Assembly (NCBI GenBank): GCA_963665275.2
Contig: CAXXIN010000012.1
Location: forward strand, 84,330-148,329
From: Negativicutes bacterium
GTDB taxonomy: Bacteria; Bacillota; Negativicutes; UBA1444
Length of the DNA stretch: 64,000 nucleotides
Reading direction: 5' to 3'
The position numbers and the translations under genes are program-made. This document shows, in pieces, positions 9,997 to 33,780 of the stretch. The notes beneath the pieces are model-generated. The model worked only from the letters and a program-made list of their open reading frames with translations, had not been told where the DNA came from and did no database searches. Numbering within the stretch: the first letter of the stretch is position 1; every line of letters starts with the position of its first letter.

Positions 9997-10035
9997 CTAG
10001 ATTATGAGGCGAGTTCGAATCGCGTTGTCGGACAC

Positions 10036-10072
10036 AAAAAAGCGCTTTCGGTTTTTCGCCGGAAGCGCTTTT
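10036..10072. terminator. bidirectional intrinsic terminator
   Basis: AAAAAAGCGCTTTCGG-loop-CCGGAAGCGCTTTT between convergent genes. Confidence 0.75.
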
Positions 10073-10121
10073 ACATTATATTCAGCCGAAAAAATCAAAA
10101 GAAATTGCATCGTTACCGTCT

Positions 10122-11153
10122 TTATATCGTATTCTTTTTCGCGGCAGCCTCTCGTACCGATTCCCTATCGCACCGGATAAAAGCCATCAGTTCTTTGGCC
10201 GTCTGCGAATACAGTTTCGTTTCCTCATAATCAGGTTCTCCGCCGGACAAATGCTGCATCAATACTCCGTCCGTCCCAAACCAGCGGGGTGCAAGTCCTC
10301 CGAAGAAAAAGCCGTTATGCCGCAGCAATTCGACCGCTTCGCCAATTGCTGGGCAAGCTGCGTTCAGCACTACCTGCAAACTGACCACCTGCCGCCTGTC
10401 GGCCTCAGTCAGCAGTTCCTCCACCACCGTCGCCCAATCGCCGCCGATCGAGCTCACCGCTACTTTCCAGGTTTTCGCAAAGTCATAATACTTATCCTCT
10501 CGGACTGTATCGCCTGCCGCCGGCAAGGCTGCCGACGACGTCAGAAAAGTCCGGGGTCGTAGCGGCGCGGCCAGTCGTCGCAAATACTCATCATACCTGG
10601 CAGGCAAATACTCTGGCGCCACAGGGTCAGAAAGTTCCGAAAAATTCAGTACGCAGGATACTCGTGCCATGCCTGCCTTATTGCTTTTTCCGTCTTTAAA
10701 ACTGGCGCCGTCCAATTGATCCAGCTCCAGCGCACAGTCGACAAATCCTGACTTTATTGCGCTGACTTGGGTGAAATAATGACAGCAGACCGCTTCGCTG
10801 AAAATCCCGTCATTGCCAGACATTCTACACATTGTCGGATCAAAATAAAAGCACGCCAATTCCAATGACACAGCAGACTGGGCATAAGCCGGATCAACCA
10901 ACATATTTCCGGCTTCCCACAGCCGGAAGTTAGGGGCTGACTTGAAGAAAGAAATGTAACCTGCGGGATGCCCCTCGGCAGTCAACGCCAAAGCGGCCGT
11001 CAACTTTTCAGCTTGAATATCCCGCCACAACACGTCAGGTTGATACACGTCCTTGACGGGAAAGTCCTCACCATACAGCGCACGAAAAACAGCGCCCACA
11101 TGGTGTGCATTGTTTTTCCCTACCGCAACAATTTGAAACATTTTTTCCAACAT
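10122..11153 (-). CDS. tandem GNAT-like domain protein (putative acyltransferase)
   Basis: Aligns by eye to the N-terminal ~330 aa of 23734..26319 (YGEDFPV.VY.P, EAVCCHYFTQ, GFFFGGLAPRWFGTDGVLMQ). Start moved to ATG 11153. Confidence 0.7.
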   Translation of the reverse strand: MLEKMFQIVAVGKNNAHHVGAVFRALYGEDFPVKDVYQPDVLWRDIQAEKLTAALALTAEGHPAGYISFFKSAPNFRLWEAGNMLVDPAYAQSAVSLELACFYFDPTMCRMSGNDGIFSEAVCCHYFTQVSAIKSGFVDCALELDQLDGASFKDGKSNKAGMARVSCVLNFSELSDPVAPEYLPARYDEYLRRLAAPLRPRTFLTSSAALPAAGDTVREDKYYDFAKTWKVAVSSIGGDWATVVEELLTEADRRQVVSLQVVLNAACPAIGEAVELLRHNGFFFGGLAPRWFGTDGVLMQHLSGGEPDYEETKLYSQTAKELMAFIRCDRESVREAAAKKNTI

Positions 11154-11181
11154 TGGTCTTACCCCTTTTCTTCCGCGACTA

Positions 11182-11430
11182 TTATTTTGCGATTCGTTTA
11201 TCCAGATAGGCCACTGCATATGCGATAGTCGTCATTTCTTTTACATCTTCCTGTGGAATCGTTATCGCAAAGGTTTCTTCCGCCATTACCAGAAGTTCGG
11301 TGTAATCAAGCGAATCCAGTTTGAGGTTCTCCACCAGCAAAGCTTCCGGTTTCAAATCCGCCTCTGTGATATTTTTCTTTTTTAGTTTCAAAATGATTGC
11401 CTTTACTTTTTCCAATGTTGTCATGTTCAT
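11182..11430 (-). CDS. acyl carrier protein
   Basis: About 80 aa; LKLDSLD phosphopantetheine Ser motif, EETFAITIP. Confidence 0.9.
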   Translation of the reverse strand: MNMTTLEKVKAIILKLKKKNITEADLKPEALLVENLKLDSLDYTELLVMAEETFAITIPQEDVKEMTTIAYAVAYLDKRIAK

Positions 11431-11551
11431 CCATCCTTTCATTTTTAGCTTGTCTTTTTTCATGAACTTTATCCGGAATAATTTCTGCAACCTATGGCAT
11501 TCCCCCTTTAAATTGAAAACCAAATTAACTCCTTGCCGGAATTGGCAGAAG

Positions 11552-12541
11552 TCAAATCCAACGCATAATGATGGACCCCCAGGCTAGTCCTCCGCCAAAT
11601 CCGGTCAGCGCAATCACATCGCCGGACTCAATCCGTCCGGTTTCCAACGCCTCGAAAAGAGCTATTGGAATGGTGGCGGATGATGTATTTCCGTACTTCT
11701 CCACATTGACCATAAATTTTTCCATCGGTAAGTCCATGCGCCGGGCGGCAGCTTCAATAATCCGACGGTTTGCCTGGTGCGGGATGATCAGTTTCAGATC
11801 TTCCCTGCGCAAATTCGCCAGCGTTAATGCCTGATCAGTGACTTCCGGCAACATTTTCATCGCAAATTTGAAAACCTCCGGCCCGTTCATCTGTATCTTA
11901 TTCATTTTGTCCGCTATCACTTCCGCCGTCGCCGGCTTCCGCGACCCGCCTGCCGGAACCATCATAAAGTTGGCCCCAGACCCATCCGCGCCGAGCTTCG
12001 CCGACAATATGCCATAGCCGGAAGGAACCTGACGCAATACCACCGCACCGGCCCCATCTCCGATAAGCATGCAGGTATCCTTATCCGACCAATTAATTAC
12101 CCGGGACACCGCCTCGGTTCCAATCACCAACACCGTCCGGGAAAATTCATTGGCAATAAACTGGGCGCCGACTGTCAGTGCATACACAAACCCCGAACAA
12201 ACTGCAGTCAGGTCAAACGCCGGAATATTTTTGATTCCCAAACGCTCCTGAATGATACAGGCAGTCGACGGGAACTGCATATCCGGGGTTGAGGTGGAAA
12301 CGATGATCAGATCCACTTCGTCCGGAGACACTCCCGCCCGGGCCAACGCCCGCTGTGCGGCAATAACGCCCAGATCGGAGGCTGCCTGCGAGGGCGCGGC
12401 GATATGGCGCTCCCTGATCCCCGACATGGATTCGATCCATTCTTCTGTGGCATCTATCATCCCTGCCAACTCAGCATTGGTCAATACTTTTTCCGGCGCA
12501 TACATCCCAACGCCTATGATCCCGGCACTAATCTCAGACAT
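11552..12541 (-). CDS. fabH: 3-oxoacyl-ACP synthase III (FabH family), copy 1
   Basis: AVCSGF, PHQAN and YGNTSSA give the Cys-His-Asn triad; GFGGGL. Confidence 0.93.
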   Translation of the reverse strand: MSEISAGIIGVGMYAPEKVLTNAELAGMIDATEEWIESMSGIRERHIAAPSQAASDLGVIAAQRALARAGVSPDEVDLIIVSTSTPDMQFPSTACIIQERLGIKNIPAFDLTAVCSGFVYALTVGAQFIANEFSRTVLVIGTEAVSRVINWSDKDTCMLIGDGAGAVVLRQVPSGYGILSAKLGADGSGANFMMVPAGGSRKPATAEVIADKMNKIQMNGPEVFKFAMKMLPEVTDQALTLANLRREDLKLIIPHQANRRIIEAAARRMDLPMEKFMVNVEKYGNTSSATIPIALFEALETGRIESGDVIALTGFGGGLAWGSIIMRWI

Positions 12542-12574
12542 GTTAATTCTCCCCCTCTTTCCAAGACAATCGAG

Positions 12575-13570
12575 TCAAATCCACCGCATCACAATCGATC
12601 CCCAGGTCAAGCCTGCGCCAAATCCGGTTAACACTACCACGTCACCCGATTTTATCCGACCGCTCTCCAATGCCTCATGCATCGCAATCGGAATGGAAGC
12701 CGAAGAAGTATTGCCATAGCGATCCAAATTCACCATAAACTTTTCCATAGGCAAGTCAAGACGTCGGGCCGCCGCCTCAATGATTCGAATATTGGCCTGG
12801 TGCGGAACAATCAGGTCGATATCATCTTTGCGCAAACCAGCAAGCGCCAGTGCCTGTTCCGTAACTTCCGGCAACATCTTCATGGCAAATTTAAATACTT
12901 CCGGCCCATCCATATGGAGTTTATTTCGGTTGGCTTCGATCAACTCCGGTGTCACAGGCAGCCGTGAACCACCCGCCGGCAGCTGCAGATGTTTGCCGCC
13001 GGCGCCATCCGAGCCAATCTTCATCGACAAAATTCCGCTACCCTGCGCAGTCGGCTGCAACGCAACAGCACCCGCTCCGTCCGCCAACAATATGCAGGTC
13101 TCGCGATCCGTCCAATTCGTCACTTTCGACAAAACTTCGGTCCCAATAACCAATACGGTCCGGCAAAAATCATTCGCAATAAATTGCGCCGCAATCGTGA
13201 GTGCGTAAATGAAACCCGTGCAACCCGCCGTCACATCGAAGGCCGGTATATTTTTGATGCCCAAACGATCCTGAATGATGCAGGCTGTCGAGGGAAACTG
13301 CATGTCAGCCGTCGCTGTCGCGACGATGATCAACCCCACTTCATCTGCAGAAACACCGGCCTGCGCCAACGCCCGCTGCGCCGCTATCACGCCTAGGTCA
13401 GAAGCCGCCTGTGAATCTTCTGCTATTCGTCGTTCCTTGATCCCGGTACGTTCCTGAATCCATTCATCACTGGTGTCGACCATCTTTGCAATTTCATCGT
13501 TCGTCAGCACTTTATCAGGCAGACACACTCCAATTCCGACGATTCCTGCTTTGACTCTTTTGTTTATCAT
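12575..13570 (-). CDS. fabH: 3-oxoacyl-ACP synthase III (FabH family), copy 2
   Basis: AGCTGF, PHQAN, YGNTSSAS, GFGAGL; RBS GGAGG before ATG 13570. Confidence 0.93.
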   Translation of the reverse strand: MINKRVKAGIVGIGVCLPDKVLTNDEIAKMVDTSDEWIQERTGIKERRIAEDSQAASDLGVIAAQRALAQAGVSADEVGLIIVATATADMQFPSTACIIQDRLGIKNIPAFDVTAGCTGFIYALTIAAQFIANDFCRTVLVIGTEVLSKVTNWTDRETCILLADGAGAVALQPTAQGSGILSMKIGSDGAGGKHLQLPAGGSRLPVTPELIEANRNKLHMDGPEVFKFAMKMLPEVTEQALALAGLRKDDIDLIVPHQANIRIIEAAARRLDLPMEKFMVNLDRYGNTSSASIPIAMHEALESGRIKSGDVVVLTGFGAGLTWGSIVMRWI

Positions 13571-13677
13571 TCCGATATCCTCCACCAACAAACTTCACTT
13601 ATCTTCGATAAAATCTTCTAATATATATTTTTTTGTTCTAGCTATTACCCTGCGGTTTTTCAGGATGGTGATCGACT

Positions 13678-15615
13678 TTATTCATTCTCGCAATTGGGTC
13701 CAAAATAGCGCAGCGCAAGCATCGTAATATCGTCGGACTGTTCCGCCCCTGCGGTGAACCGCGCCAGTTCTTCGGTCATTCCATTCACCAGTCCGACACA
13801 ATCCTGTTGCCGTAATCTGGATAAGGTCTCTTGGGTCCGATCATTGCCGAATAAGCGATTTTCTTTATCCATCGCTTCATTGACTCCGTCCGTGTAAAGA
13901 TACAGCGAATCGCCAGCCTGCAACACCAGCTCCGCCTCATCGAAGCTCATATCCTCCATAGCTCCGGCCAGGGTTCCCTTGGTGCGGGGCAAAAAGTTCG
14001 GTTCCCCTGCCGCCTCCGTTAAAAACGGCAGATTGTGTCCGCCGTTGGCCCAACGGAATTTTCCTGTCGGCAGATGCACCACCCCGCAGAATAACGTCAC
14101 GAACATGTTGGCATCATTGTTGCGGGCCAGTTCATTGTTGACCCGCACCAGCACTTTCCCTGGCGAGCGTTCCTCCTGTACGAAAGCGCGCAAGAATGTC
14201 CGCGTAACCGCCATGAACAGAGCCGCCGCAATTCCCTTGCCGGAGACATCCCCGATGACGATCCATAAATGGTCTGAATCAGGCATCATAAAATCATAGA
14301 AATCGCCACCCACTTCACGGGCCGGCGTCATCATCGCGTGAAGATCAAAGTCCTTTCGTGCAGGGAACGGCGGGAACGTTTTGGGTACCAGTTCCATCTG
14401 AATGCTCTGCGCGATTCGAAGCTCGCTTTCGATCCGTTCTTTGGCTGTAGCCGCATCCTGCAGCAACACAATATGTTTTTCCAACTCATCACGCATGGCC
14501 GCAAAAGAATTTGCCAGATTCGCCACTTCATCCTGCCCTGGAATCTGCGGCAGCGGAGCATTCAGGTCTCCTCCAGCCAGCGCCCGTGTGGCGTCGGCCA
14601 ATTTACGCAGCGGCCCGGTAATGGAGCGGGAAATCAACAGAATCACCGGCAACAGGAACAGAAAGCCGACGAACCCGATAGCGCTTTCCTTACGACTAAG
14701 TTCAGCGACTTTCGCCATCACTTCCGCCTCCGGAAAAAAAATGCCGATAGACCAACCGGTTGATTGAATGGGACGATACATCAGCCACCCTTCCTGCCCG
14801 GAAAAGATACTCCCGGTAGCAACGAACCCACTCCGCCCCTGGACCATCTCACGTCCGAGACTTCGCAGCTGGCTATTATGCTGCTCTTCCGCCTGGCTGA
14901 AAATGTTTTCCTTCAGGATCAGCTCTCGATTGGGGTGAGTGATAAAGGTACCGTTTTTCGAAAGCAGAAATGCATAACCGCCTTTGCCGAGAGGCAATGA
15001 ATCCAGCAAATCAGACAGCCATTCCAAAGAAATATCACTGGCAACCACGCCTCGGAAAACACCCGCACTATCGCGAATCGGCGAAGAGTAAGTGACCATG
15101 AGCGTGTTCCCTCTCGACTCCGCCCGGTAGGGTTCACTCCAACCCGCCTGCTTCATCATCTGCGGAATTGAGTACCAGTCCTGAACAAAATAGGGCGTTG
15201 CCTGTTTCCCGCGATCAGCCTGCACCAACTGGTTCCAGGAACGGAAAACATAAGGCGATGTATAGGCTTCGTTATAACCGAAGGCCCCCGGTTCCAAAGC
15301 CACAGAGGCGCCATAAATCTCCTCATTGTCCCGAACCAGCCGCTCCAGCAAAGCGTAAACTGTATCCTGACGAGACGGCGCCTGCAATTCCATCCGGCCA
15401 TCCATGCCACTGACTATTTTTCGCACCGCCACTTCAATCAGTTCGATCCGAGCAGTCGTCGCACGGGCCAGTTGTTCAGCCTTTGCTTCCTGTTCCTGCT
15501 CCAGGATCTGACGCGCCACGACATATCCGTAGCCGATCACAGCGGCTAAAGTGAGAACGGACGCCAACAAAACCGACACCGACAGCCGCCAGGTAATACT
15601 CAATTTACGGAACAT
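13678..15615 (-). CDS. membrane-bound Cache-HAMP-PP2C (SpoIIE/RsbU-family) phosphatase
   Basis: Two TM helices flank a Cache-like domain (DWY, WSEPY); HAMP (PL..L, DEV..LA.SF); EVGGDFYD, GDVSGKG, YTDGVNEA, QSDDIT. Confidence 0.92.
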   Translation of the reverse strand: MFRKLSITWRLSVSVLLASVLTLAAVIGYGYVVARQILEQEQEAKAEQLARATTARIELIEVAVRKIVSGMDGRMELQAPSRQDTVYALLERLVRDNEEIYGASVALEPGAFGYNEAYTSPYVFRSWNQLVQADRGKQATPYFVQDWYSIPQMMKQAGWSEPYRAESRGNTLMVTYSSPIRDSAGVFRGVVASDISLEWLSDLLDSLPLGKGGYAFLLSKNGTFITHPNRELILKENIFSQAEEQHNSQLRSLGREMVQGRSGFVATGSIFSGQEGWLMYRPIQSTGWSIGIFFPEAEVMAKVAELSRKESAIGFVGFLFLLPVILLISRSITGPLRKLADATRALAGGDLNAPLPQIPGQDEVANLANSFAAMRDELEKHIVLLQDAATAKERIESELRIAQSIQMELVPKTFPPFPARKDFDLHAMMTPAREVGGDFYDFMMPDSDHLWIVIGDVSGKGIAAALFMAVTRTFLRAFVQEERSPGKVLVRVNNELARNNDANMFVTLFCGVVHLPTGKFRWANGGHNLPFLTEAAGEPNFLPRTKGTLAGAMEDMSFDEAELVLQAGDSLYLYTDGVNEAMDKENRLFGNDRTQETLSRLRQQDCVGLVNGMTEELARFTAGAEQSDDITMLALRYFGPNCENE

Positions 15616-16612
15616 AGCCAAGCCCTCCGCCGGTGAAATCATCATAGAATGGCGACTGTTGCAGCAACCCCTGTTGACGCATCACCTGAACAGTTCTGGA
15701 GTAGTCTTGCCGGGATAACCTGCCGAAAGCCCATGAATCCTGTGCCCCCGGAATCACGCTGGTCAGGATCTTTTCCAGCATCCATTTCATGTGGGGCCGA
15801 TTCGTCGGCACATTATCTTTGATAACATACTGCATCACAATATCGAGCGCCTCGTCCGGATTCTCAGCCGCATACTTCCACCCGGCCAACGAAGCTTCGC
15901 GGAAATTGCGCGCCTGTTCAGGATTTTTCGTCAAGGCATCCCTGGTTGTATAAATCCCGTCCTCCGGAAAGCCAAACTCATCATCCCGCAGAAAGAACAG
16001 TTTCAGTTCGTCCATATCGATGCCTGTTTGATAAGCCATGTGAACTTCGTTGTAGTTCATTGCTGAACATGCCACGACTCCCTGCTGCAGGAAAAGGTTC
16101 ACAGAGTAGTACTGGGGTACAACCTCCGGGCGGGCATTCATTGCTTGCAACCAGGCGGCATACGGTGCGCGGAAGTCTCCGCCCCAGACACTGATTTTTT
16201 TGCCGGACAAATCGGACAGCGTAGAAATATTGTCCTTCTTCCAAGTCATCAACACTAAATTCGAGGAGTTAACGACCTGGGCCAGGTTCACCAGCGGGAT
16301 ATCCTTTTCACTGCGAGCGAGAGCCGCGCTCAGCCATAACGAAGCAAAATCCACTTCGCCCCGGATGAGAAAATCCGCAGCATCCAGTCCCGGACCGCCG
16401 GGGACGATGGAAACATCAAGTCCCTTATCCTTATAAAAACCTTTTTCCAGAGCGACGTAATACCCTGCGAACTGAGCCTGATGACTCCATTGCAGCATGA
16501 GACGTACCGGTTGAAGCTCAGTTGCCTGCACCGGAAGCATCCATAACAGCACCAGTATCAAAACAACCAGAGAAACCGGCAACCGCCCGGATGTTCGACT
16601 ATTTATCACCAT
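15605..16612 (-). CDS. NMT1/THI5-like substrate-binding protein
   Basis: Signal peptide; LQWSHQAQFAGYYVALEKGFY...GLDV motif. Confidence 0.88.
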   Translation of the reverse strand: MVINSRTSGRLPVSLVVLILVLLWMLPVQATELQPVRLMLQWSHQAQFAGYYVALEKGFYKDKGLDVSIVPGGPGLDAADFLIRGEVDFASLWLSAALARSEKDIPLVNLAQVVNSSNLVLMTWKKDNISTLSDLSGKKISVWGGDFRAPYAAWLQAMNARPEVVPQYYSVNLFLQQGVVACSAMNYNEVHMAYQTGIDMDELKLFFLRDDEFGFPEDGIYTTRDALTKNPEQARNFREASLAGWKYAAENPDEALDIVMQYVIKDNVPTNRPHMKWMLEKILTSVIPGAQDSWAFGRLSRQDYSRTVQVMRQQGLLQQSPFYDDFTGGGLGYVP

Positions 16613-17015
16613 AACGCACAGCCAATGACAGGATGTTGCGGTCCCCGCTGCGACTGTAGTGCACCTCGTCCAGCATCCTGCGAATCAGAAAAATACCCAG
16701 ACCGCCAACTTCACGGTTTTCCAGCTCCGACTTGATATCCGGCGCATCCGCCGCCAATGGATCGAAAGGAACGCCGACATCAGTCAACTCAATGCGAACA
16801 ACCTCCGCTTCCCGCGAAATCCGGATCGTAACTTCGCCGGGCGGAATTTCATAGGCATAGCTGCAAATATTGACAGCCGCTTCTTCCACCGCCAGTTCCA
16901 AATGCATTACCCGTTTTGGGTGAACGCCCATTGCGGTTGCAGTTTCTGAAACGAATCCCACAATATCGGGTATCGTTTCCATAGTGGCCGCAAAAGTTTT
17001 TTCCACACCGTCCAT
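16599..17015 (-). CDS. RsbW-like anti-sigma factor / Ser-Thr kinase (HATPase)
   Basis: LAVEEAAVNI (N box), DVGVPFDP (G1), GGLGIFLI (G2). Confidence 0.9.
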   Translation of the reverse strand: MDGVEKTFAATMETIPDIVGFVSETATAMGVHPKRVMHLELAVEEAAVNICSYAYEIPPGEVTIRISREAEVVRIELTDVGVPFDPLAADAPDIKSELENREVGGLGIFLIRRMLDEVHYSRSGDRNILSLAVRYGDK

Positions 17016-17353
17016 TATTTGTCCTCCCCGGCAGTTGCCTGCTCTACATCAGCATATACCGTCAGAATATTGTCGAAACCGGATATCGAGATAACCTCCT
17101 CAACCAAACCGGATAGGGAACAGAGGGATAGACTACCGTTAAGGGGTTTCACTTTTTTGGTAGCGGCAAGAATACTGCGGAGACCGGCGCTGCTGATATA
17201 CTCCAGGCCGCCGAAATCGAGTACGAGTCGGTGATGTCCCTCGGCAATCCAGTCCAGACAAGCTTTTTCAAACTGCGCTGCATTTCCGATATCAAGGCGC
17301 CCCTCCAAACGAATCACCCAAAAGCCGTTTTTCTCTTTTGTGCTTAAATTCAT
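17015..17353 (-). CDS. STAS domain anti-anti-sigma factor (RsbV-like)
   Basis: LEGRLD; LDFGGLEYISSAGLR carrying the phosphoacceptor Ser; ISGF. Confidence 0.9.
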   Translation of the reverse strand: MNLSTKEKNGFWVIRLEGRLDIGNAAQFEKACLDWIAEGHHRLVLDFGGLEYISSAGLRSILAATKKVKPLNGSLSLCSLSGLVEEVISISGFDNILTVYADVEQATAGEDK

Positions 17354-17394
17354 GTTGTTCAACCCTCCATATTTTATATTCATGCAAGCTCATA

Positions 17395-18513
17395 TTATGG
17401 CAAAATGTTTTTCAATGCCGCAACCAATTTCTCCATGACCGGCAACATTCCGAGCGTCACCCTAATGTGGTTGGGAAAACGGAATCCCGTCATCGACCGC
17501 ACCATGATTCCCTGGCGCATCAACTTTCGATACGCCAGCGTATCGCTCATCGGCAACCGAATCACCATATAGTTCCCTTCGCCGGAAATATACGGCAATC
17601 CCATTCGGGTCAGTTCCGTTTCGAGAAAACGCCTTGCTTCCCCCACCATCCGGCGGGTCCGTGCAACATGCTCTTCTGCGTCAAGAAGGGACCCCAGAGC
17701 GGCCTGCTGTGCTATGGAATTGACCGAGTACACCACGCAGGTTCGCCGGATCACATCCACCAATTTTTCTTGCCCGGCTAAAAAGCCAATTCGCAGCGCC
17801 GCCAGCGCAAACATTTTCGAAAAAGTCCGAAACACCAATAAATTCGGGTATTCCCGCATCAGCTCCATTCCGTTGGGAAAATCCGGTGCATCAACAAATT
17901 CGCCATAGGCCTCATCAACCACCACGATCTGTCGCCCATCCACCTGGTCGAGAAACTTGCGCAACCGTTCTTCGTTCCAATAAGTTCCGGTCGGATTGTT
18001 CGGATTGCAGATAAAAATGATTTTGGTGCGCGCATCGACCGCCGCCAGCATCGCCGCTTCATCATAGCCATAATCAGCTGCCAGTGGAACGAGCCGGGCT
18101 TCATAGCCGGAAAACTCCGCCACCCACTCATACACTGCGAACGTCTTGTCGGTGGTGATGATATTATCGCCTACCTGACAAAAAGCATTGATTACAAACG
18201 CAATGACTTCGTTGGCGCCATTGCCGACAATAAAAGAGTCCGGCGAATGTCCGAACTTCTCCGCCAGCTTCCGCCGCAAATGATAGGCGTCGCCGCTCGG
18301 ATAGATCGCTGCCTGAACCGGGTCCATCGCCCGGATGGCTTCCAAAGCTTTGGGCGATGGGCCGAGAGCATTTTCATTATTGTTCAGACGATAAAGAACC
18401 GGGCAGCCGAACATCTGTCGCAGCACATCATCGGGCTTATTGGGAATATACGGCTCGATTTTTTGAATGTGACGGGGAACCAGCGTCTCCAGCGGCGGAA
18501 ATGGATGATTCAC
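17395..18513 (-). CDS. PLP-dependent aminotransferase, histidinol-phosphate transaminase-like
   Basis: LNNNEN, CNPNNPTG, DEAY, and RTFSK (PLP Lys). No his operon context, so the substrate is uncertain. Confidence 0.85.
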   Translation of the reverse strand: MNHPFPPLETLVPRHIQKIEPYIPNKPDDVLRQMFGCPVLYRLNNNENALGPSPKALEAIRAMDPVQAAIYPSGDAYHLRRKLAEKFGHSPDSFIVGNGANEVIAFVINAFCQVGDNIITTDKTFAVYEWVAEFSGYEARLVPLAADYGYDEAAMLAAVDARTKIIFICNPNNPTGTYWNEERLRKFLDQVDGRQIVVVDEAYGEFVDAPDFPNGMELMREYPNLLVFRTFSKMFALAALRIGFLAGQEKLVDVIRRTCVVYSVNSIAQQAALGSLLDAEEHVARTRRMVGEARRFLETELTRMGLPYISGEGNYMVIRLPMSDTLAYRKLMRQGIMVRSMTGFRFPNHIRVTLGMLPVMEKLVAALKNILP

Positions 18514-19781: not shown

Positions 19782-19791
19782 ATCCCTCCGT

Positions 19792-20634
19792 TCATTTTAG
19801 TCCAGCCTGCGCGAGCCGCAACAACAGATTCCCGGCAACGCATCTCCGGTAATCGGCGCTTGCCCGAAGGTCATCAATGGGACAAACGGCAGCGGCCGCG
19901 AGCTGCCCTGCGTCGCGCACGCACTCCACCGACAGGACTCGCCCCAATAGATACTCCTCCACCGCCGGCGCTATTGTCACAGTCGGACCGACGCTACCCC
20001 AGGCCAGCTTCACAGCTGTTATCGTTCCGTCGTCGTCGGTCGTCAGGCTGGCCGCCATACTCGCCACCGAGATCGCCATTGCCTTACGTTTTCCCACCTT
20101 GTAATACACGGAGCGCATCGCGGCGGCGGGCCTGGGCACTCTGACAGCGGTTACCATTTCGCCGGCTTGCAATGTTGTTTTGCCCGGACCGGTGATAAAA
20201 TCAGCCACCGGTTGACGGCGGGATCCGGTCGCGCTGCACACTTCAACCGCGGCGTCCAAAACATAGAGCGGCGGCAAGGTATCGCCAGCCGGCGAGGCCG
20301 TGCAAACATTGCCGATCAAGGTTGCGCTATGGCGAACCGGCGGGGATGCAAGTTCTGCTATTGCTTGATGCAAAGCAGTCAGCTCCTGCTTAATGGTCTC
20401 GCATTCCAGCAGGCTTTGGAGAGTTACGGCAGCACCGATAACAAATTCCTCTTCCAAAATGTCAAGTCTCTGCAGTTCCTCAATGCGTTCGATACAAAAA
20501 ACTGCCGACGGTTTCTGCCCGTTGCGGCGCAATCTGACCAGCAGATCAGTCCCTCCCGCCATTATGAGTCCGTCAGGACTGTCCGCTCTCATTGTATTCA
20601 ATTCTTCCAGCGTTCGGGGAAACAGCACTTCCAT
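19792..20634 (-). CDS. xanthine dehydrogenase family FAD-binding subunit
   Basis: AGGTDLLV, ATLIGNVCTASPAGD, PIDDLRASADYR; TGATG coupling to the upstream gene. Confidence 0.92.
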   Translation of the reverse strand: MEVLFPRTLEELNTMRADSPDGLIMAGGTDLLVRLRRNGQKPSAVFCIERIEELQRLDILEEEFVIGAAVTLQSLLECETIKQELTALHQAIAELASPPVRHSATLIGNVCTASPAGDTLPPLYVLDAAVEVCSATGSRRQPVADFITGPGKTTLQAGEMVTAVRVPRPAAAMRSVYYKVGKRKAMAISVASMAASLTTDDDGTITAVKLAWGSVGPTVTIAPAVEEYLLGRVLSVECVRDAGQLAAAAVCPIDDLRASADYRRCVAGNLLLRLAQAGLK

Positions 20635-21107
20635 CAGCTCATCCCCCCATTCAGGATCCGAGCTGCAGCCATAACAGCGTCCACGATTTTTTGGTAGCCG
20701 GTGCAGCGGCACAAGTTACCGCTCAATTCCCGGCGAACTTCTTCGCGCGTCGGATCAGGAATGCGGCGCAGCAAATCCAATGTGGCCAAGATCATTCCCG
20801 GAGTGCAAAAGCCGCACTGCACGGCGCCGTGGTCGACAAAAGCCTGTTGAACGACATGAAGTTCTCCATTTGAAGCAAGTCCTTCGATCGTCAGAAGGGT
20901 CCGGCCCTCGAGTTGCGCTGCCAGCATCAGGCACGACAGCCGACTTTCCCCATCGACCAAAATCGTGCAGGCGCCACATTCTCCCGAGCCGCAGCATTCT
21001 TTCGTACCGCCCAGCCCCAGATCCTCACGCAGCAAATCAACTACCCGCCGGTCGGGCGCCGTTTCCACACTCATGGATTTTCCGTTTAAAATAAAATTCA
21101 CCTTCAC
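20634..21107 (-). CDS. xanthine dehydrogenase family (2Fe-2S) subunit
   Basis: CCGSGECGAC, QCGFCTPG, GNLCRCTGY. Confidence 0.95.
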   Translation of the reverse strand: MKVNFILNGKSMSVETAPDRRVVDLLREDLGLGGTKECCGSGECGACTILVDGESRLSCLMLAAQLEGRTLLTIEGLASNGELHVVQQAFVDHGAVQCGFCTPGMILATLDLLRRIPDPTREEVRRELSGNLCRCTGYQKIVDAVMAAARILNGGMS

Positions 21108-23449
21108 GGCCTACCCTCCTGCCCTGTCTGACGCAATGCCGCCAATACGTTTTCCGCATTCATCGTTTCGGCGGCAATTCGGAATCCCGCAGCGTCCGCA
21201 ATCGCATTGGCGACAGCCGGCAACACCCCGTCAATTCCGATTTCACCGACGCCCTTCATCCCAAAGGGACCTTCCTTTTCATTTGGGGTGACAGGCACCG
21301 TCACCATATCCGGAACATCCAGCGCCGTCGGCAAAATATAGGTGCTGAAATCATTCGTCAGAATCCGTCCGTCCGAAACGGCAAATTCCTCAAACAGTGC
21401 GTAACCCAGCCCCTGGGCTGCGCCGCCCTGAACCTGCTGTTCATAGACCTGCGGGTTCAGGACCCGCCCTGCATCCACACAATTCAACATATCGACGGCC
21501 GTAGTTTCACCTGTCAGGGTATCGATTTCCACCGCGACAAGTTGTACCCCATAGGTTATAACCCGGTGAGGAAATCCGTGCATGCGCAAATTTTCGCCAC
21601 TGGCTATCGGTTGATCATTTACCGGGCAAGTATAGCTGTAAGTAGTCGTTCGTTCCGACGCATCCATCACCGAAGCAACCAGCGCCAACGGAACACTGCG
21701 CCCGGAAGGCAGATGCCGCGCCAGGCCCGGCAGCAAAATAATCTCTTCTATGGAAACACTATGAAGCAACTGGAAAGAAATCATCAAGGCCGCCCGGGCG
21801 CGAATCCTGTCTAGCAATAATTCCGCCGCTCCAATCATCGCATTGCCATAGGTGAAGGTTGTGCGACTGGCAGATGAGGACGCCGAAGGCAAGGTTCGGG
21901 ACGTATCCGGCATAACGAGCTCCATCGTTTTTTGGGGCTGACAGAGGATATGCCCTGCGATCTGCGCATAGGTGCTGGCATTGCCCTGTCCCATATCGGA
22001 CACCCCTACATAGACGCGAATCTTGCCATCGGTCAGGAGCTCCAGTTTGGCATTGGCATAGTCGGCAATAGCCGGACCAAACCCGACGCTATGATAAACC
22101 GCCGCCACCCCAACGCCTCTGCGCTTGAAGTCCGGCGCGCCAGCGCACCATTTTTTCCGGCGCCGCCACAAAGGATGCCGCTCTGTTTCATCCAGACATC
22201 CCAGTAATCCTGTCGTCTGTGTCAGCAATACGCCGGTCGGTGAAGTATCCCCGCGCGAAACCGCATTTTTTCGCCGCAGTTCGAGCGGGTCAAACCCTCC
22301 CGCCTTAGCCAGTTCATCGATCGCCTGCTCCATGGCAGCAGCCGCCTGCGGCACACCAAATCCCCGAAATCCGCCTGAAACCGGATTATTGGTATACGCG
22401 ACCGAACCACGGACCAGCACATTGGGGATCCGGTAAGGTCCACCCGCATGTTCCATGGCCAAGGCAAATACTTCGCTGCCAAGAGAAGCATAAGCGCCAG
22501 TATCAAACAAAAGCTTACAGGATAAAGCCTGCAGAACCCCGTCCTGATCACAGCCCACCGTGTACTCCGCACGCATCGGATGCCGTTTTACTCCCGTCAG
22601 TATACTCTCTTCACGCGAATACCACAGTTTCACCGGACGTCCTCCGCTGTGCATCGCCGCCAGCGCCAGGAATCCCTGAACGGTAACGCCGTCTTTGCCG
22701 CCGAAGCCTCCACCGAGGCAGGGTGCGACAATATGAATCTTTGCCGGTGACAAGCCTAAAGCCTCCGCCAGTTCCAACCGGTCGCGAAAAGGGGTCTGGG
22801 TGGAAACCGTCATCGACAGGGTTCCATCCTCTTCCATCCAGGCAACTCCGGCCTGTGTCTCCAGAAAGGCATGTTCCTGCCAGCCGGTCCGAATCTTCAC
22901 CGTGGCCTGAAACGTACATTTCCCCAGATTCGCCGCTCCGTCGCCGCAAACGATCTCACTTTGGATCAGCACATTCCCGGCCGGACGGGTTGGGTGCAAA
23001 ATCGGCGCACCCTCTTCCAGCGCCGCTTCGGGATCGAACACAGGCGGCAACGGCTCATACTCAACCCGGATAGCCGCCAAAGCCGCCGCGAGGGTCTCCT
23101 TGCCCTCCGCCACCACCAAAGCCACGGCATCGCCATAATGGCGCACCCGTTCATCGGCCAAAATCGGTTGATCCTTTTCGAAAATCCCCAGGCGATTTTT
23201 TCCCTTGATATCGCGGTGCGTTTGAACAGACACGACTCCTGCGAGGGCAGTCGCTCCTGTTGTATCAATCGCCAGAATTCGCGCATGAGCATGTTCGGAC
23301 CGCTTGACCCCCGCCCACAGAAGGCCCTCCGGGTACAGATCCGCTGCAAAAACTTCAGCACCCGTCACCTTTGTCAACGCATCCAGTCGCGGAGCATTGC
23401 AGCCGATTTCCCACACCTGAGCGGTCTTCCTCTGCCTATTTTCCGACAT
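21104..23449 (-). CDS. xanthine dehydrogenase family molybdopterin-binding subunit
   Basis: GGGFGGK, FRGFG, DMGQG, QVQGG, and KGVGE (catalytic Glu). Confidence 0.93.
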   Translation of the reverse strand: MSENRQRKTAQVWEIGCNAPRLDALTKVTGAEVFAADLYPEGLLWAGVKRSEHAHARILAIDTTGATALAGVVSVQTHRDIKGKNRLGIFEKDQPILADERVRHYGDAVALVVAEGKETLAAALAAIRVEYEPLPPVFDPEAALEEGAPILHPTRPAGNVLIQSEIVCGDGAANLGKCTFQATVKIRTGWQEHAFLETQAGVAWMEEDGTLSMTVSTQTPFRDRLELAEALGLSPAKIHIVAPCLGGGFGGKDGVTVQGFLALAAMHSGGRPVKLWYSREESILTGVKRHPMRAEYTVGCDQDGVLQALSCKLLFDTGAYASLGSEVFALAMEHAGGPYRIPNVLVRGSVAYTNNPVSGGFRGFGVPQAAAAMEQAIDELAKAGGFDPLELRRKNAVSRGDTSPTGVLLTQTTGLLGCLDETERHPLWRRRKKWCAGAPDFKRRGVGVAAVYHSVGFGPAIADYANAKLELLTDGKIRVYVGVSDMGQGNASTYAQIAGHILCQPQKTMELVMPDTSRTLPSASSSASRTTFTYGNAMIGAAELLLDRIRARAALMISFQLLHSVSIEEIILLPGLARHLPSGRSVPLALVASVMDASERTTTYSYTCPVNDQPIASGENLRMHGFPHRVITYGVQLVAVEIDTLTGETTAVDMLNCVDAGRVLNPQVYEQQVQGGAAQGLGYALFEEFAVSDGRILTNDFSTYILPTALDVPDMVTVPVTPNEKEGPFGMKGVGEIGIDGVLPAVANAIADAAGFRIAAETMNAENVLAALRQTGQEGRP

Positions 23450-23681
23450 GTTGCTCCACATAATCGACCGCCGTCGCCAATGTCTTGAGTTTCATAACAT
23501 CCGAACCGCGCAGAACAAAATCGAAAGTATCCTCCATATCCGCCAATATCCAGCTGAAAGCCAGCGAATCCACTCCCATCGTTGCCAGTTCCTGCGCAGG
23601 GATAATTGTATCGGGGTTAACTCCTGATATCCGCTTGGCAATAATTTTACGCAACTCGCTCTCAATCTTTTGTCGTTCCAT
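23436..23681 (-). CDS. acyl carrier protein
   Basis: About 81 aa; MGVDSLAF Ser motif; RBS GGAGG before ATG 23681. Confidence 0.88.
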   Translation of the reverse strand: MERQKIESELRKIIAKRISGVNPDTIIPAQELATMGVDSLAFSWILADMEDTFDFVLRGSDVMKLKTLATAVDYVEQHVGK

Positions 23682-23733
23682 CTTTAGAAAACCTCCCAAC
23701 ACTCCTATCAATTTGATCCCCAGACCAAGGCCA

Positions 23734-26319: not shown

Positions 26320-26334
26320 TTCGTTTCTACCCCT

Positions 26335-27726
26335 TTATCCTTGTTCTTGTGAAATGGCTGATTGCAAAGTTGTTAATTTTTCCGTTTCAATGCGTTGCCT
26401 GCTAGCCGACAGCAACCGCTGCAAGAGAAATGCGGCAAATAGAGCCGTTCCTGCGGTGGCTGCCGGATGACTCCAATATACCCCGGTCTGTCCCCAATGC
26501 CCGGCAAACGCATTGGCCAAAGGAATCCGCAGGCAAATCACATACAAAAAGGCCATAACCATTATGTATATAGGATGCTTGGTTCCCTGCGACATTCCGT
26601 TCACGGCGTATAACAGCGGTGAAAAAAGCATGGATATGCCGGATGCTTGCATAGCAATGCCGCCCAACAATTGAAGTTCCGCCGTTGGGCGAAACAAGCC
26701 GATCAGTTCCTGTGGGAAAAAGAAAAACAGCGCCGCAAGCGGCGTGATGATTGCCCAGGCGACCCGAAGGAAAAAGTTCAATCCCTGGCGCACCCGGTTG
26801 TAATCAAGCCGTCCCAAATTGAATCCGGTAAAAGTAGCCAACGCATTACTCAGACCCATGACAGGCAACATTACCATCATTTCCGAGCGGGACATCAAAT
26901 TCCAGGCGCCGATTGCCCCCGGACCGAAGCGCGACAAAATCCCGTTCAACATTATCAAGGCAACAGGGCTGACCAGGTAGGCTGCGGTCACGAACATTCC
27001 CTGTCCCAGAATCTGTCTCCACGCCCGCAGAAATCCTGGATAAGGAAAGAAAACCATTTTCTCAGCGAACAATTCTCGCAGCTTGTGGCTGAGATAGATG
27101 GCGGAAACGCTTTGTCCAATCAGCGTTCCAACGGCGGCCCCAGTCACGCCCCAACCCAAAACAAAAATGAACAGTGGATCGAGCGCCATATTCAGTAAAT
27201 TTCCCCACAGCATCGCTTTCATCGGGGTCATCGTGTCGCCGCGCGAAGTAAACAACGCTTCAACCGTCATCACATAGCCCATCACTGGAAACCCTGCAAC
27301 CAGCCAGAATATATATCCGCTCCCCTGGTCGGCAATCGATGCGTCAGCGCCGATTCCCAAGTAAAACAAACGGCACAGACTCGGAGCCATCAAGGGTAGA
27401 AACAATCCCATGAATAGGGTCATCAGCGGCAATACCGCCGAGGCCGTGCGGCGGGCGCCATCCTCGTCACCTTTGCCCCTGGCGTAGCTCATCAGAATCA
27501 CGCTACCCATGGCAATCCCTTTGGCCATCGACAAAGCCAGATAGCTCAGCGGCAATGCCATCGATACGGCAGCCAGCGGGACTTCACCCAACCAGGACAC
27601 AAAGATGGTTGATACGTATGAATAAAGATTTTGAAAAAAAAGAGACACCATCAGAGGAAGCGCCAAGCGCCCAAGCACATGGGACACTTTTCCCTGAGCC
27701 ATATCTACTGCATGCGCCACGTCCAC
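26335..27726 (-). CDS. MATE family efflux transporter
   Basis: Multi-TM; LALPLM..., GDTMTPM..NLLNMALDPLFIF..GVTGAAVGT. Start moved to GTG 27726 after GGAGG. Confidence 0.9.
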   Translation of the reverse strand: MDVAHAVDMAQGKVSHVLGRLALPLMVSLFFQNLYSYVSTIFVSWLGEVPLAAVSMALPLSYLALSMAKGIAMGSVILMSYARGKGDEDGARRTASAVLPLMTLFMGLFLPLMAPSLCRLFYLGIGADASIADQGSGYIFWLVAGFPVMGYVMTVEALFTSRGDTMTPMKAMLWGNLLNMALDPLFIFVLGWGVTGAAVGTLIGQSVSAIYLSHKLRELFAEKMVFFPYPGFLRAWRQILGQGMFVTAAYLVSPVALIMLNGILSRFGPGAIGAWNLMSRSEMMVMLPVMGLSNALATFTGFNLGRLDYNRVRQGLNFFLRVAWAIITPLAALFFFFPQELIGLFRPTAELQLLGGIAMQASGISMLFSPLLYAVNGMSQGTKHPIYIMVMAFLYVICLRIPLANAFAGHWGQTGVYWSHPAATAGTALFAAFLLQRLLSASRQRIETEKLTTLQSAISQEQG

Positions 27727-27823
27727 TTCACGCTCCTCCGCTGTTAATTTCGCGCCGCTGTCGTTAATTTCCTGCGTATGATCATTCTCTACCGCAGGAT
27801 TTTCAAGCAGTTCCGGACAACAC

Positions 27824-27868
27824 AAAAGCAGAGCCGCAATGAACTCAAGGTTCATAGGGCTCTGCAAA
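27824..27868 (-). terminator. intrinsic terminator of the DASS-fumarase operon
   Basis: GCAGAGCC..ATGAAC-loop-GTTCAT..GGCTCTGC followed by TTTTGTGTT. Confidence 0.7.
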
Positions 27869-31991: not shown

Positions 31992-32504
31992 CTAATCCTG
32001 TCCGTACTGTTTCTTGATCAGAGGTTTGATTCCGCCGCTGTCGAGAATGTTCATCACATAATCGGACAAGGGCTGCGCCTGTGCCGTGGCCCCGGTCGTT
32101 TCATTCGTCACTTTGCCTGTGGTCATGTCCACGGTCAATTGATCGCCACGTTTGACGATTGCACTGATTCCGGGGCAAACGATCAACGGCACGCCGAGAT
32201 TGATGACATTGCGATAAAAAATCCGGCCGAAGGAATCTGCGAGAATCGCACCGACTCCCGCGGCTTTGAGCGTAACGGCGGCATGCTCCCGGCTGGAGCC
32301 GCAGCCGAAGTTGGTAGACGCCACAATGAGATCGCCGTTCTGAACTTCTTTCACGAAGTTCGGATCTGCGCCTTCCATCGCATGTTTGCCAACCTGATCG
32401 GGATCCGTAAGGTCAAGAAACCGGCCCGGATAAATCTGGTCGGTGTCGATATTCGGTCCATAGACGAAGGCTTTTCCTGTCAATACCTTTTGCACAATTC
32501 TCAC
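31992..32504 (-). CDS. 3-isopropylmalate dehydratase/homoaconitase family small subunit (LeuD/DmdB-like)
   Basis: NIDTDQIYPG, NFGCGSSREHA, FGRIFYRN. Confidence 0.92.
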   Translation of the reverse strand: MRIVQKVLTGKAFVYGPNIDTDQIYPGRFLDLTDPDQVGKHAMEGADPNFVKEVQNGDLIVASTNFGCGSSREHAAVTLKAAGVGAILADSFGRIFYRNVINLGVPLIVCPGISAIVKRGDQLTVDMTTGKVTNETTGATAQAQPLSDYVMNILDSGGIKPLIKKQYGQD

Positions 32505-32506
32505 CC

Positions 32507-33760: not shown

Positions 33761-33780
33761 GAAACAGCATACCTCCTTGT

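Follow-up and report, generated by a model that had tools for sequence, protein, structure and literature searches.

A Negativicutes operon joins carrier-protein enzymes and a partner switch to a predicted pseudokinase-GNAT fusion conserved among anaerobes

The DNA analyzed here is a 64,000-nucleotide stretch, called the window below, from a Negativicutes bacterium (assembly GCA_963665275.2, contig CAXXIN010000012.1, forward-strand positions 84,330 to 148,329). At window positions 10122-27726, the minus strand carries 16 tightly packed, co-oriented genes with hairpins resembling terminators at either end (Table 1). This report centers on gene 07, designated WG, whose product appears to join a kinase-like domain to a GNAT-fold module, and on its association with an aminotransferase and with a partner-switching module composed of a phosphatase, a STAS protein, and an RsbW-type kinase. 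Families were assigned by Pfam and NCBIfam, except for genes 07 and 16, which have no Pfam family and were assigned by predicted fold. An initial annotation, made from the sequence alone, had listed 16 co-oriented genes with named families at this locus, and the list of open reading frames (ORFs), Pfam, NCBIfam, and the folds reproduced all of them.

The ORF list of the window gave 16 successive minus-strand ORFs spanning 10122-27867. Starts supported by homologues shorten genes 01, 03, 15, and 16; for gene 01, the GTG at 27726 is in frame and consistent with the position where the homologues begin. Gene 06 probably starts near 20637, as its homologues align from query residue 26-31, and the start of gene 16 is probably M23 at 11153, which would yield a protein of 343 aa. 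With these starts and the ORF coordinates, no intergenic gap is larger than ~125 bp and several stop and start codons overlap. The terminators that the initial annotation had placed at about 27824 and 10036 correspond to hairpins at 27865-27828 and 10038-10072. The former, which the terminator pattern scan did not pick up, has a folding energy of -24.9 kcal/mol (z -6.12; equalled by 0 of 200 shuffles) and is followed by UUUUGUGUUG. The promoter match between this hairpin and gene 01 is weak alone, because the scan returned 16 sites in the region against 13.7 expected from shuffled sequences. No Rfam family scored above its gathering score anywhere in the 64-kb window, so that no riboswitch or leader is known for the operon. 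Genes unrelated to the operon flank it, namely those for fumarase and a DASS transporter past one border and NHL-repeat, CMD, and MerR genes past the opposite border. The two GNL genes (genes 02 and 16, described below) lie ~15 kb apart in all 11 same-genus genomes searched, where contigs allow, and the complete 16-gene order was found again in three loci (L012, L014, and L015). The 16-gene locus is real and is read as one operon, and its gene arrangement is not due to chance.

Table 1. Genes and border elements of the operon, in window coordinates
Feature	Position	Strand	Evidence
Hairpin followed by a U-run (27827-27818), terminator-like; upstream operon border, closing the upstream fumarase genes	27828..27865	-	folding energy
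Sigma-70-like promoter match (TTGAAA, 17-nt spacer, GATCAT) between the hairpin and the MATE start	27778..27806	-	9/12 consensus positions
Gene 01, MATE-family efflux transporter	26335..27726	-	MatE 117.4 bits; TIGR00797 161.8 vs cut-off 147.4
Gene 02, GNL (~residues 1-333) fused to AMP-forming acyl ligase (~334-861), 861 aa	23734..26319	-	AMP-binding 288.9 bits, AMP-binding_C 53.8 bits
Gene 03, acyl carrier protein 1, DSL serine motif; likely start M11 at 23681	23436..23711	-	PP-binding 31.6 bits
Gene 04, molybdopterin-binding large subunit of hydroxylase of the xanthine dehydrogenase (XDH) family	21104..23461	-	MoCoBD_1, MoCoBD_2, Ald_Xan_dh_C
Gene 05, [2Fe-2S] small subunit of hydroxylase	20634..21107	-	Fer2_2 117.4 bits
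Gene 06, FAD-binding medium subunit	19792..20712	-	FAD_binding_5 143.9 bits, CO_deh_flav_C 85.5 bits
Gene 07 (WG), predicted pseudo-RsbW N-domain (~1-145) fused to GNL-type GNAT module (~150-423), 423 aa	18510..19781	-	predicted fold; no Pfam family
Gene 08, HisC-family pyridoxal phosphate (PLP) aminotransferase; start overlaps gene 07 stop by 4 nt	17395..18513	-	Aminotran_1_2 187.7 bits
Gene 09, single-domain STAS protein, YISSAGLR motif	17015..17383	-	STAS 77.9 bits; TIGR00377 85.5 vs cut-off 53.45
Gene 10, RsbW-type serine kinase, ATP-binding boxes intact	16599..17015	-	HATPase_c_2 87 bits vs cut-off 27.4
Gene 11, secreted NMT1/THI5-type solute-binding protein, N-terminal signal peptide	15605..16612	-	NMT1 130.6 bits
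Gene 12, membrane sensor phosphatase: transmembrane segment, dCache_1 (outside), transmembrane segment, HAMP, PP2C	13678..15645	-	SpoIIE 172.5 bits (cut-off 25), MCP-like_PDC_1 90.2, dCache_1 79.2, HAMP 60 bits
Gene 13, FabH-type ketosynthase III, Cys-His-Asn present	12575..13591	-	NF006829 444.6 vs cut-off 249
Gene 14, second FabH, 69% identical to gene 13 (tandem duplicate), Cys-His-Asn kept	11552..12541	-	NF006829 423.9 bits
Gene 15, acyl carrier protein 2, DSL motif; likely start near 11430	11182..11523	-	PP-binding 28 bits; TIGR00517 57 vs cut-off 70.45
Gene 16, stand-alone GNL: GNAT-fold N-half and conserved C-half; 365-aa ORF	10122..11219	-	predicted fold; no Pfam family
Bidirectional terminator-like palindrome, 15-bp stem, flanked by A-run and T-run; boundary of the operon and the convergent NHL-repeat gene	10038..10072	.	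pattern scan

The WG structure was modeled from an alignment holding 20 of its 69 homologues (pLDDT 89.4). The N-domain of the model matches SpoIIAB, RsbW, and UsfX (E 9e-8 to 1e-6, TMt 0.7-0.88), and the C-terminal half matches the GNAT proteins Gcn5, YhbS, and AAC(6') at E 4e-4 to 3e-3. Toward the RsbW of the operon (gene 10), the WG N-domain shows a weak sequence likeness (33% over 42 residues, E 2e-4). Gene 10 displays EEAAVN, DVGVPF, and GGLG, the ATP-binding boxes of this kinase family. WG retains LAVEE and one glycine of the last box and is missing the asparagine of EEAAVN and the DVGVPF (DxG) motif. As the asparagine and the DxG of the kinase are absent, the WG N-domain is read as a pseudokinase. 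The family comprises 284 clusters at E <= 1e-30 among 1.84 billion representatives, and nearly all of the 150 representatives listed are 420-450 aa long, indicating that the fusion is stable. In one related genome without a full-length WG (G029), a 540-aa ORF (G029:C1:2650333-2650740) matches only the pseudo-RsbW domain (positions 1-134, 53.9 bits), and a 120-bit STAS lies elsewhere; this ORF may belong to a further protein family that employs the WG-type receiver domain.

A second family, GNL, includes gene 16 and its paralogue, the N-domain of gene 02 (its first ~333 residues; 33% identity, E 1e-50), and has 183 homologues at E <= 0.001. None of the 120 homologues listed has a name beyond "hypothetical"; their sources are Desulfobacterota, Syntrophorhabdaceae, Desulfobulbus, and Negativicutes. 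A model of gene 16, built from 23 sequences (22 GNL homologues and the gene 02 N-domain; pLDDT 89.6), assigns residues 2-179 to the GNAT fold, with a Z score of 11.7 and a root-mean-square deviation (rmsd) of 2.9 Å over 154 residues aligned to 2r7h; the Foldseek match to GNAT has an E-value of 1.6e-7. The residues that do not vary in GNL include E80, C123, H125, D145, and R164. The conserved C-terminal half of GNL gave no fold match in a wide structure search with the whole model, in which this half was not folded separately. Folding and the paralogy to gene 16 thus uphold two calls of the initial annotation, the "pseudokinase-GNAT fusion" for gene 07 and the "GNAT-like/adenylate-forming fusion" for gene 02. 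The nearest Atlas clusters are the same for the WG C-terminal half and GNL, which is a lead for homology and no proof of it. Profile searches with WG and GNL against PDB sequences returned insignificant matches only. From these models, the GNAT domains of WG and GNL may be acyltransferases with putative catalytic activity.

Outside the Negativicutes, gene 02 matches by its GNL domain only, which there forms a stand-alone protein of ~350 aa. The GNL-ligase fusion stands beside an acyl carrier protein (ACP) in the window and in locus L091. The GNL family is expanded in the genus, with 2 to 6 matches per genome and further paralogues outside the operon. In L091, from genome G007 (G007:C8, L091:7422-15790), the ACP and the GNL-ligase fusion are accompanied by an amidohydrolase, and a second GNL adjoins a semialdehyde-dehydrogenase-like gene.

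The conservation of the gene neighborhood was assessed by searching ~185,000 species genomes with a WG alignment, which gave 159 pattern matches and 112 confirmed relatives. The best 80 were examined, leaving 32 out; each locus was taken with up to 10 kb on either side, and its ORFs were labeled by phmmer with the 16 window proteins as queries. In the following, the counts are given for all 80 loci and then for the 44 that have at least 8 kb on both sides. An aminotransferase lies directly downstream of WG in 79/80 loci (43/44). The molybdenum (Mo)-hydroxylase trio is present in 65/80 (39/44) and GNL in 63/80 (34/44), as a stand-alone protein in 55 loci and fused to the ligase in eight. At least one of STAS, RsbW, and PP2C was labeled in 39/80 loci (26/44) and at least two in 30/80 (18/44), while MATE (14/80; 10/44) and NMT1 (13/80; 7/44) are less frequent. 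A ligase occurs in 18/80 (10/44), separate only in ten, fused to GNL only in seven, and in both forms in one. ACP occurs in 17/80 (10/44), and FabH in 12/80, all of Negativicutes type (6/44). The conserved core consists of WG and the HisC-like aminotransferase, and the wider unit adds the Mo-hydroxylase, GNL, a MATE or MFS transporter, and the partner switch. The ligase, the ACPs, and the FabHs are lineage-specific add-ons to this core. The initial annotation had based its reading largely on the ligase, FabH, and ACP chemistry, which by these frequencies is not the conserved unit. The check that it proposed, whether biosynthetic and signaling genes stay together across anaerobes, came out positive in three bacterial groups, judged by the loci with at least two switch genes.

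The core was found in Negativicutes, Clostridia, and Desulfobacterota. Grouped by record title, the loci comprise 16 from Negativicutes or Bacillota metagenome-assembled genomes, five from Clostridia/Peptococcia, 57 of Desulfobacterota type, and two labeled as methanogens; at least two switch genes are present in 11/16, 4/5, 15/57, and 0/2 of them, respectively. Where switch genes are present (39 loci), they mostly stand close to the core: in 34 of these loci, no more than 250 bp separate a core gene from the nearest switch gene. The order of the switch genes varies, being upstream and divergent in L066, downstream in L025, and convergent in L087. In a quick IQ-TREE phylogeny of 81 WG sequences, switch-linked loci fall on either side of the deepest split, and Pelotomaculum nests among the Desulfobacterota. 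Two Pelotomaculum loci (L052:13545-15332 and L045:14318-16081) encode PP2C and an RsbW-type kinase as a single ~590-aa fusion without Cache, near STAS, WG, aminotransferase, and GNL. L052 also carries, upstream and divergent, a LuxC/LuxE-like acyl-protein synthetase/reductase pair. The methanogen-labeled contigs L023 (Methanoregula; 9872-13446) and L028 (Methanoculleus; 9863-19315) both have WG, aminotransferase, and GNL, to which L028 adds ligase, ACP, and the Mo trio. Their WGs form one pair nested in the Bacillota clade, and STAS/RsbW or STAS/PP2C genes are present in each of the two genomes; these contigs would be explained by gene transfer to archaea or by mis-binning.

The 80 loci contain 332 unlabeled neighboring ORFs, among which three families recur widely: an MFS transporter (39 loci, each of Desulfobacterota type), an XdhC chaperone (nine), and a MobA-like protein (nine). 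Smaller neighbor families are a His-kinase-like fragment (seven loci), an ABC ATPase (six), a Zn phospholipase C (five), an autotransporter (four), and a GDSL-type lipase/acylhydrolase (four). No hydrolase, ring-cleavage, or beta-oxidation family recurs widely among these ORFs.

The link between the partner switch and WG was examined at the level of co-occurrence. Across 24 cluster-linked STAS sequences, Y62, S64, S65, A66, G67, L68, and R69 are invariant, and the YISSAGLR motif of gene 09 holds the candidate phosphorylatable serines. A profile built from these sequences (24 of the 38 available) was scored in 41 related genomes, 15 of which contain a full-length WG (families f1, f12, and f20). 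These 15 genomes, and no others, have a STAS that reaches 146 bits or more with this profile, always on the contig that carries WG. None of the 26 genomes without WG has a cluster-type STAS, and their best STAS reaches at most 120 bits. Five genomes without switch genes at the WG locus were tested, and each encodes a high-scoring STAS (102-148 bits) at another site. Six STAS loci were retrieved from these five genomes: five adjoin RsbW, one of them together with NMT1 in the order of the window, and the sixth, in a methanogen-labeled genome, adjoins PP2C.

A predicted complex between WG residues 1-150 and the STAS protein scored 0.81, compared with 0.02 for the best of three controls, with at least 88% contact agreement between runs and a partner pLDDT of at least 87. 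Of 157 solved complexes, 116 attain this mark, as do two of 215 mismatched pairs; these counts are only a rough guide, since the WG-STAS complex was modeled from alignments prepared for this analysis. The predicted interface brings the family-invariant WG residues L46, E49, E50, G110, L112, L113, and R116 together with S64/S65 of STAS. Neither the 16 proteins of the operon nor the 39 proteins flanking it in the window matched a sigma-factor family in Pfam, and an unlinked sigma factor was not searched for. We consider that the switch probably ends on the enzyme itself, through the pseudo-RsbW domain of WG as the predicted receiver.

On the input side, gene 11 begins with a hydrophobic leader ending in VQA, read by eye as a signal peptide, and gene 12 has a dCache domain between two transmembrane segments. 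The NMT1 protein of gene 11 is likely a co-sensor. All 21 cluster-linked sensors compared, which come from both phyla, retain WY, PY, and D in the dCache pocket. The AA_motif of dCache_1AA domains, in PctA numbering, consists of Y121, R126, and W128 for the carboxyl group and Y144 and D173 for the amino group (PMC8915833). In a spacing-based alignment to these positions, gene 12 shows W157-Y158, Y173, and D204 at the expected spacing, with Q in the place of R126 and T in that of Y121, so that it departs from the dCache_1AA motif as stated there by keeping the amino-group half and losing the carboxyl half. As far as the spacing-based alignment holds, a sensor with this partial motif would fit an amine-type ligand.

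The biosynthetic-type genes were compared with characterized families. Among sequences of solved structure, gene 04 comes closest to nicotinate dehydrogenase (3hrd, E 4.6e-92), followed by 4-hydroxybenzoyl-CoA reductase (1rm6, E 5.1e-91). The domain set of genes 04-06 places the hydroxylase in the wider XDH family, and the equivalog cut-offs of xanthine dehydrogenase itself are not reached: pucD, the best for gene 04, scores 562.8 against 783.65, XdhC 186.5 against 217, and XdhB 192.2 against 310. The ligase of gene 02 scores 572 bits to PRK12583, under the cut-off of 832. Gene 08 exceeds the HisC equivalog cut-off (TIGR01141, 298.7 against 276.55). The genome has three HisC-type genes, and the better copy (329.6 bits), on contig C19, led us to reject gene 08 as the housekeeping hisC; the histidine-pathway role probably belongs to another copy. 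Genes 13 and 14 were likewise rejected as the housekeeping fabH, a further fabH being present on contig C9. The FabHs, the aminotransferase, and ACP2 of the operon are extra copies in the genome. The FabHs do not reach the cut-offs for DarB/StlD-type enzymes (NF053539, 50.7 and 48.4 against 550; NF005293, 62.7 and 55 against 450).

The initial annotation had drawn analogies to PqsA/PqsBCD, DarB, LuxI, and FeeM. These do not extend to family membership, in that the FabHs are ordinary by NF006829 (Table 1) and Pfam gave no LuxI or FeeM match. It had not recognized the gene combination as a characterized cluster, and no known pathway was matched in Pfam, NCBIfam, or the literature searched.

Two predicted proteins fuse components of the unit, with GNL joined to an ACP in P0099 and WG joined to the aminotransferase in P0306 (813 aa). 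A different family of the same class is represented by genome G031, in which GNL, MFS, a multi-module nonribosomal peptide synthetase (NRPS), an Sfp-type phosphopantetheinyl transferase (PPTase), STAS, RsbW, NMT1, PP2C, WG, and aminotransferase genes are co-oriented. By analogy with families of biosynthetic clusters, the core bears what look like interchangeable carrier-protein assembly modules. In the same G031 stretch (G031:C92; L093:8773-18000 with L100:1-10890), the aminotransferase is followed by a dCache-GGDEF-EAL gene and then a GGDEF gene; no Mo-hydroxylase was seen in the part of G031:C92 that was read.

Taken together, we regard it as an even proposition that the locus is a carrier-protein-fed operon for the synthesis and export of an N-acyl amine or amino acid, whose acyltransferase is gated post-translationally by a partner switch sensing an extracellular ligand. 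In such a scheme, the ligase would place an acid onto ACP1, the FabHs would extend the acyl unit on ACP2, and the aminotransferase would produce the amine. The GNL-type acyltransferases (gene 16, the N-domain of gene 02, and the C-terminal half of gene 07) would N-acylate this amine from carrier- or CoA-bound acyl groups. The Mo-hydroxylase would hydroxylate a (hetero)aromatic part, and MATE, which NCBIfam identifies as an efflux family, would export the product. The secreted NMT1 protein and the dCache domain would read an extracellular ligand, probably amine-bearing, that sets the activity of PP2C; PP2C would dephosphorylate STAS, and the RsbW kinase of gene 10 would re-phosphorylate it. Unphosphorylated STAS may then bind the ATP-blind pseudo-RsbW domain of WG and thereby turn the acyltransferase, or a WG-aminotransferase complex, on or off.

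Several observations weigh against this proposal. Every chemical step in it is read from family membership. The GNAT domains of GNL and WG do not reach the Pfam acetyltransferase cut-offs (gene 02 scores 16.7 against 20.7 for PF00583, and genes 07 and 16 match no family at E <= 0.01). The Q/R-x-x-G-x-G/A sequence, the usual acyl-CoA pyrophosphate-binding motif of GNAT enzymes, is not evident by eye in the WG and GNL alignments. The WG C-terminal half and GNL are collinear and weakly alike (hhalign probability 7.9%, E 0.0044), and P0306 could be a gene-calling read-through instead of a true fusion. On the side of transport, MFS transporters can import or export, and the NCBIfam exporter hints for four MFS transporters of the clusters lie far below the cut-offs. 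Hydroxylases of the XDH family are mostly catabolic, and many of the carriers are syntrophic degraders. As to the switch, fewer than two of its genes lie nearby in 50 of the 80 loci, and since the module is also present unlinked to WG, it may have other targets. The WG-positive relatives are not independent, as 13 of the 15 belong to one family; the comparison therefore amounts to three lineages against 21. The docking result may mirror likeness and not binding, because SpoIIAB-SpoIIAA and RsbW-RsbV complexes have already been solved.

The observations on the hydroxylase and the carriers lead to an alternative in which the locus serves a catabolic or detoxifying route: an N-heterocyclic or aromatic amine or amino acid would be imported, transaminated (gene 08), hydroxylated (genes 04-06), and N-acylated (genes 07 and 16), with Cache/NMT1 sensing the substrate and the switch activating the enzyme. 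The two nearest solved relatives of gene 04 act in catabolism, and Syntrophus, Smithella, Syntrophorhabdus, Pelotomaculum, and Desulfomonile are among the carriers. The Desulfobacterota-type core has an ACP or a FabH in none of its 57 loci and is also without the ligase, and its MFS transporters, or the xanthine/uracil permease in L052, could perform the import. We nevertheless consider this route unlikely, as the neighboring ORFs include no widely recurrent downstream catabolic enzyme (the GDSL-type lipase/acylhydrolase appears in its four loci only), the MATE transporters are efflux proteins, and modules of ACP, FabH, and ligase are attached to the core, as are NRPS and PPTase in G031 and, by fusion to GNL in P0099, an ACP. 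Two or three acyltransferase-fold proteins would also be unusual, to our knowledge, for a degradative route. Overall, we favor biosynthesis about twice as strongly as catabolism. A further possibility is that WG and GNL are protein acyltransferases resembling Pat/AcuA, which would acylate lysines of operon enzymes such as the GNL-fused ligase, and would regulate metabolism while making no metabolite. AMP-forming ligases are classical targets of Pat/AcuA-type enzymes, and regulated protein acetyltransferases have a layout similar to that of WG, with a regulatory domain attached to a GNAT fold; here GNL is fused directly to such a ligase, and Gcn5/PCAF-type histone acetyltransferases are among the fold matches of the WG C-terminal half. 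These Gcn5 matches are, however, weak (TMq 0.2-0.25, rmsd 6-8 Å), and most core loci lack the ligase, whereas GNL is fused or adjacent to carrier proteins and an NRPS, and the nearly constant aminotransferase partner points to a small-molecule amine. We therefore judge a role in protein acylation to be highly improbable.

The remaining alternatives concern the switch and its ligand. Classical RsbW/RsbV systems act on sigma factors, and the switch might accordingly control transcription through an unlinked sigma factor or another target, with the pseudo-RsbW domain serving as a STAS sink or decoy, or persisting as a vestige, and with adjacency to WG reflecting co-regulation. The STAS-RsbW(-NMT1) modules located away from WG in all five genomes tested, and the six further STAS matches in genome G000, are in line with this idea. 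Against it stand the lack of a sigma-factor family in the operon and the flanking window proteins, the full length of the pseudo-RsbW/GNAT fusion in nearly all listed family representatives, the invariance of the interface residues, and the tracking of WG by the high-scoring STAS; we find purely transcriptional control improbable. In its full reading, the initial annotation had suggested that the Cache/NMT1 sensor possibly detects the acylated product exported by the operon, in a quorum-sensing-like autoinduction loop. A maker, an exporter, and an extracytoplasmic sensor do share one operon and are linked across phyla, and conservation of the enzymes is accompanied by that of the sensor's pocket residues. 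A substrate, a nutrient, or a signal from a host or partner would be an equally plausible ligand, and the predicted control is post-translational, whereas quorum sensing typically involves transcriptional autoinduction. We consider such a loop rather unlikely. A similarly low probability is assigned to a more specific version, in which WG and GNL are new carrier-protein-dependent signal synthases of strict anaerobes (syntrophs and Negativicutes) that make an exported N-acyl amine autoinducer, the NMT1/dCache-PP2C system is the receptor, and feedback runs without transcription through STAS onto the pseudo-anti-sigma-kinase of the synthase.

Partner switching is a textbook mechanism of sigma-factor control, and few cases are known in which it acts on an enzyme. 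Like RsbU/V/W and SpoIIE/SpoIIAA/SpoIIAB, the operon groups the genes for a phosphatase of the PP2C type, a STAS protein that consists of a single domain and has a conserved serine, and a serine kinase of the GHKL class, and the WG N-domain has the modeled fold of SpoIIAB/RsbW and is predicted to meet STAS through the same face. The operon differs from RsbU/V/W in that no sigma factor was found in it or in the window, where the Pfam survey described above was confined to linked genes. It also differs in having a second, enzyme-fused copy of the kinase fold without ATP motifs as the likely output, and in having an extracytoplasmic dCache domain and a secreted NMT1-type binding protein as the input.

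Among modules with enzyme-level output, SiaABCD of Pseudomonas is partner-switch-like and controls a diguanylate cyclase. HenR/STAS is described as controlling a glycosyltransferase in Anabaena (PMC13555669), and SypE/SypA of Vibrio fischeri as a partner-switch-like module controlling an enzyme-level output (PMC10120452). The operon shares with these three systems the PP2C/kinase/STAS logic and, as predicted, a non-sigma, enzyme-level output. It differs from them in that its predicted receiver is a pseudokinase built into a GNAT-fold protein, compared with a free STAS-binding enzyme, and in that the process controlled would be small-molecule acylation, compared with the synthesis of cyclic di-GMP (c-di-GMP) or polysaccharide. 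The HAMP-PP2C sensor phosphatase resembles SiaA, and the SiaB-SiaC complex 6kko is among the fold matches. Gene 12 scores 83.9 bits against the NF038263 cut-off of 700 and thus lies outside the SiaA family, and the operon has no diguanylate cyclase.

LuxI-type acyl-homoserine lactone synthases and FeeM-type N-acyl amino acid synthases take their acyl groups from acyl-ACP. GNL resembles them in its GNAT fold, its ties to ACPs and FabHs, the existence of an ACP fusion, and the presence of an exporter in the operon. It is distinguished by the lack of a Pfam match to either family (genes 02, 07, and 16, E <= 0.01) and by its length of ~340 aa, which includes the extra conserved C-terminal half without a matched fold. 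The 50 best fold matches of GNL include neither enzyme, and a more distant kinship in fold may exist. The coupling of an aminotransferase to a GNAT-fold protein (79/80 loci and one fusion) is reminiscent of EctB/EctA. However, gene 08 belongs to the HisC family and is not of EctB type, no EctC-like cyclase is present, the EctA-type sequence trace is insignificant (E 0.64, PDB profile search), and the pair in the operon carries a regulatory pseudokinase domain. The hydroxylase has the same Mo-binding, 2Fe-2S, and FAD subunits as nicotinate dehydrogenase, 4-hydroxybenzoyl-CoA reductase, and xanthine dehydrogenase, and XdhC- and MobA-type genes lie near nine related loci each. It differs from these relatives in its setting among acyltransferase, aminotransferase, and signaling genes, compared with a purine or nicotinate pathway.

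We found no published description of this gene combination in the full-text literature, a coverage from which supplements and subscription journals were excluded. A pseudo-anti-sigma-kinase that forms part of a GNAT-fold enzyme, and whose conserved companions are an aminotransferase, a Mo-hydroxylase, and a transporter, thus appears to be undescribed. If the proposal is true, the operon would be a testable case of an extracellular signal controlling a biosynthetic enzyme without transcription, would offer a proposed role for the two unannotated families WG and GNL, and would point to an unknown class of exported metabolites in syntrophic communities. If the post-translational quorum-sensing version is true, partner switching would gain a new class of output. 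Most carriers are anaerobes of digesters, sediments, and wastewater that are difficult to study. Experiments are possible in the cultivated carriers Sporomusa malonica, Desulfosporosinus fructosivorans, Clostridium thailandense, Pelotomaculum propionicicum, and Anaeroselena agilis.

Further features were recorded in related loci and elsewhere in the window. In a close relative (L022:18327-20002), two further genes separate ACP2 from the terminal GNL, namely an adenylation-like ORF of 471 aa that matches AMP-binding in part and a third ACP. A ThiF gene lies ~9.5 kb upstream of the operon (window 37211-38023), adjoining an EamA transporter and a prephenate dehydratase gene. Other ThiF-family E1-like genes are located in or beside the WG locus of Sporomusa malonica (L024:12415-13218, in the aminotransferase/MATE interval) and on the Methanoregula-labeled contig (L023:9017-9853), and a link between these genes and the WG locus is possible. 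At window 31992-37178, genes for a LarA-like racemase and for the large and small subunits of an aconitase-family enzyme neighbor a divergently oriented sigma-54 activator whose N-domain is of PrpR type; a LysR regulator and the DASS transporter/fumarase block adjoin this region, and the whole resembles an organic-acid utilization island. A large SNF2-family helicase (1155 aa), with a SWIM zinc finger and a bacterial SNF2-associated domain, is encoded at window 47862-51329.

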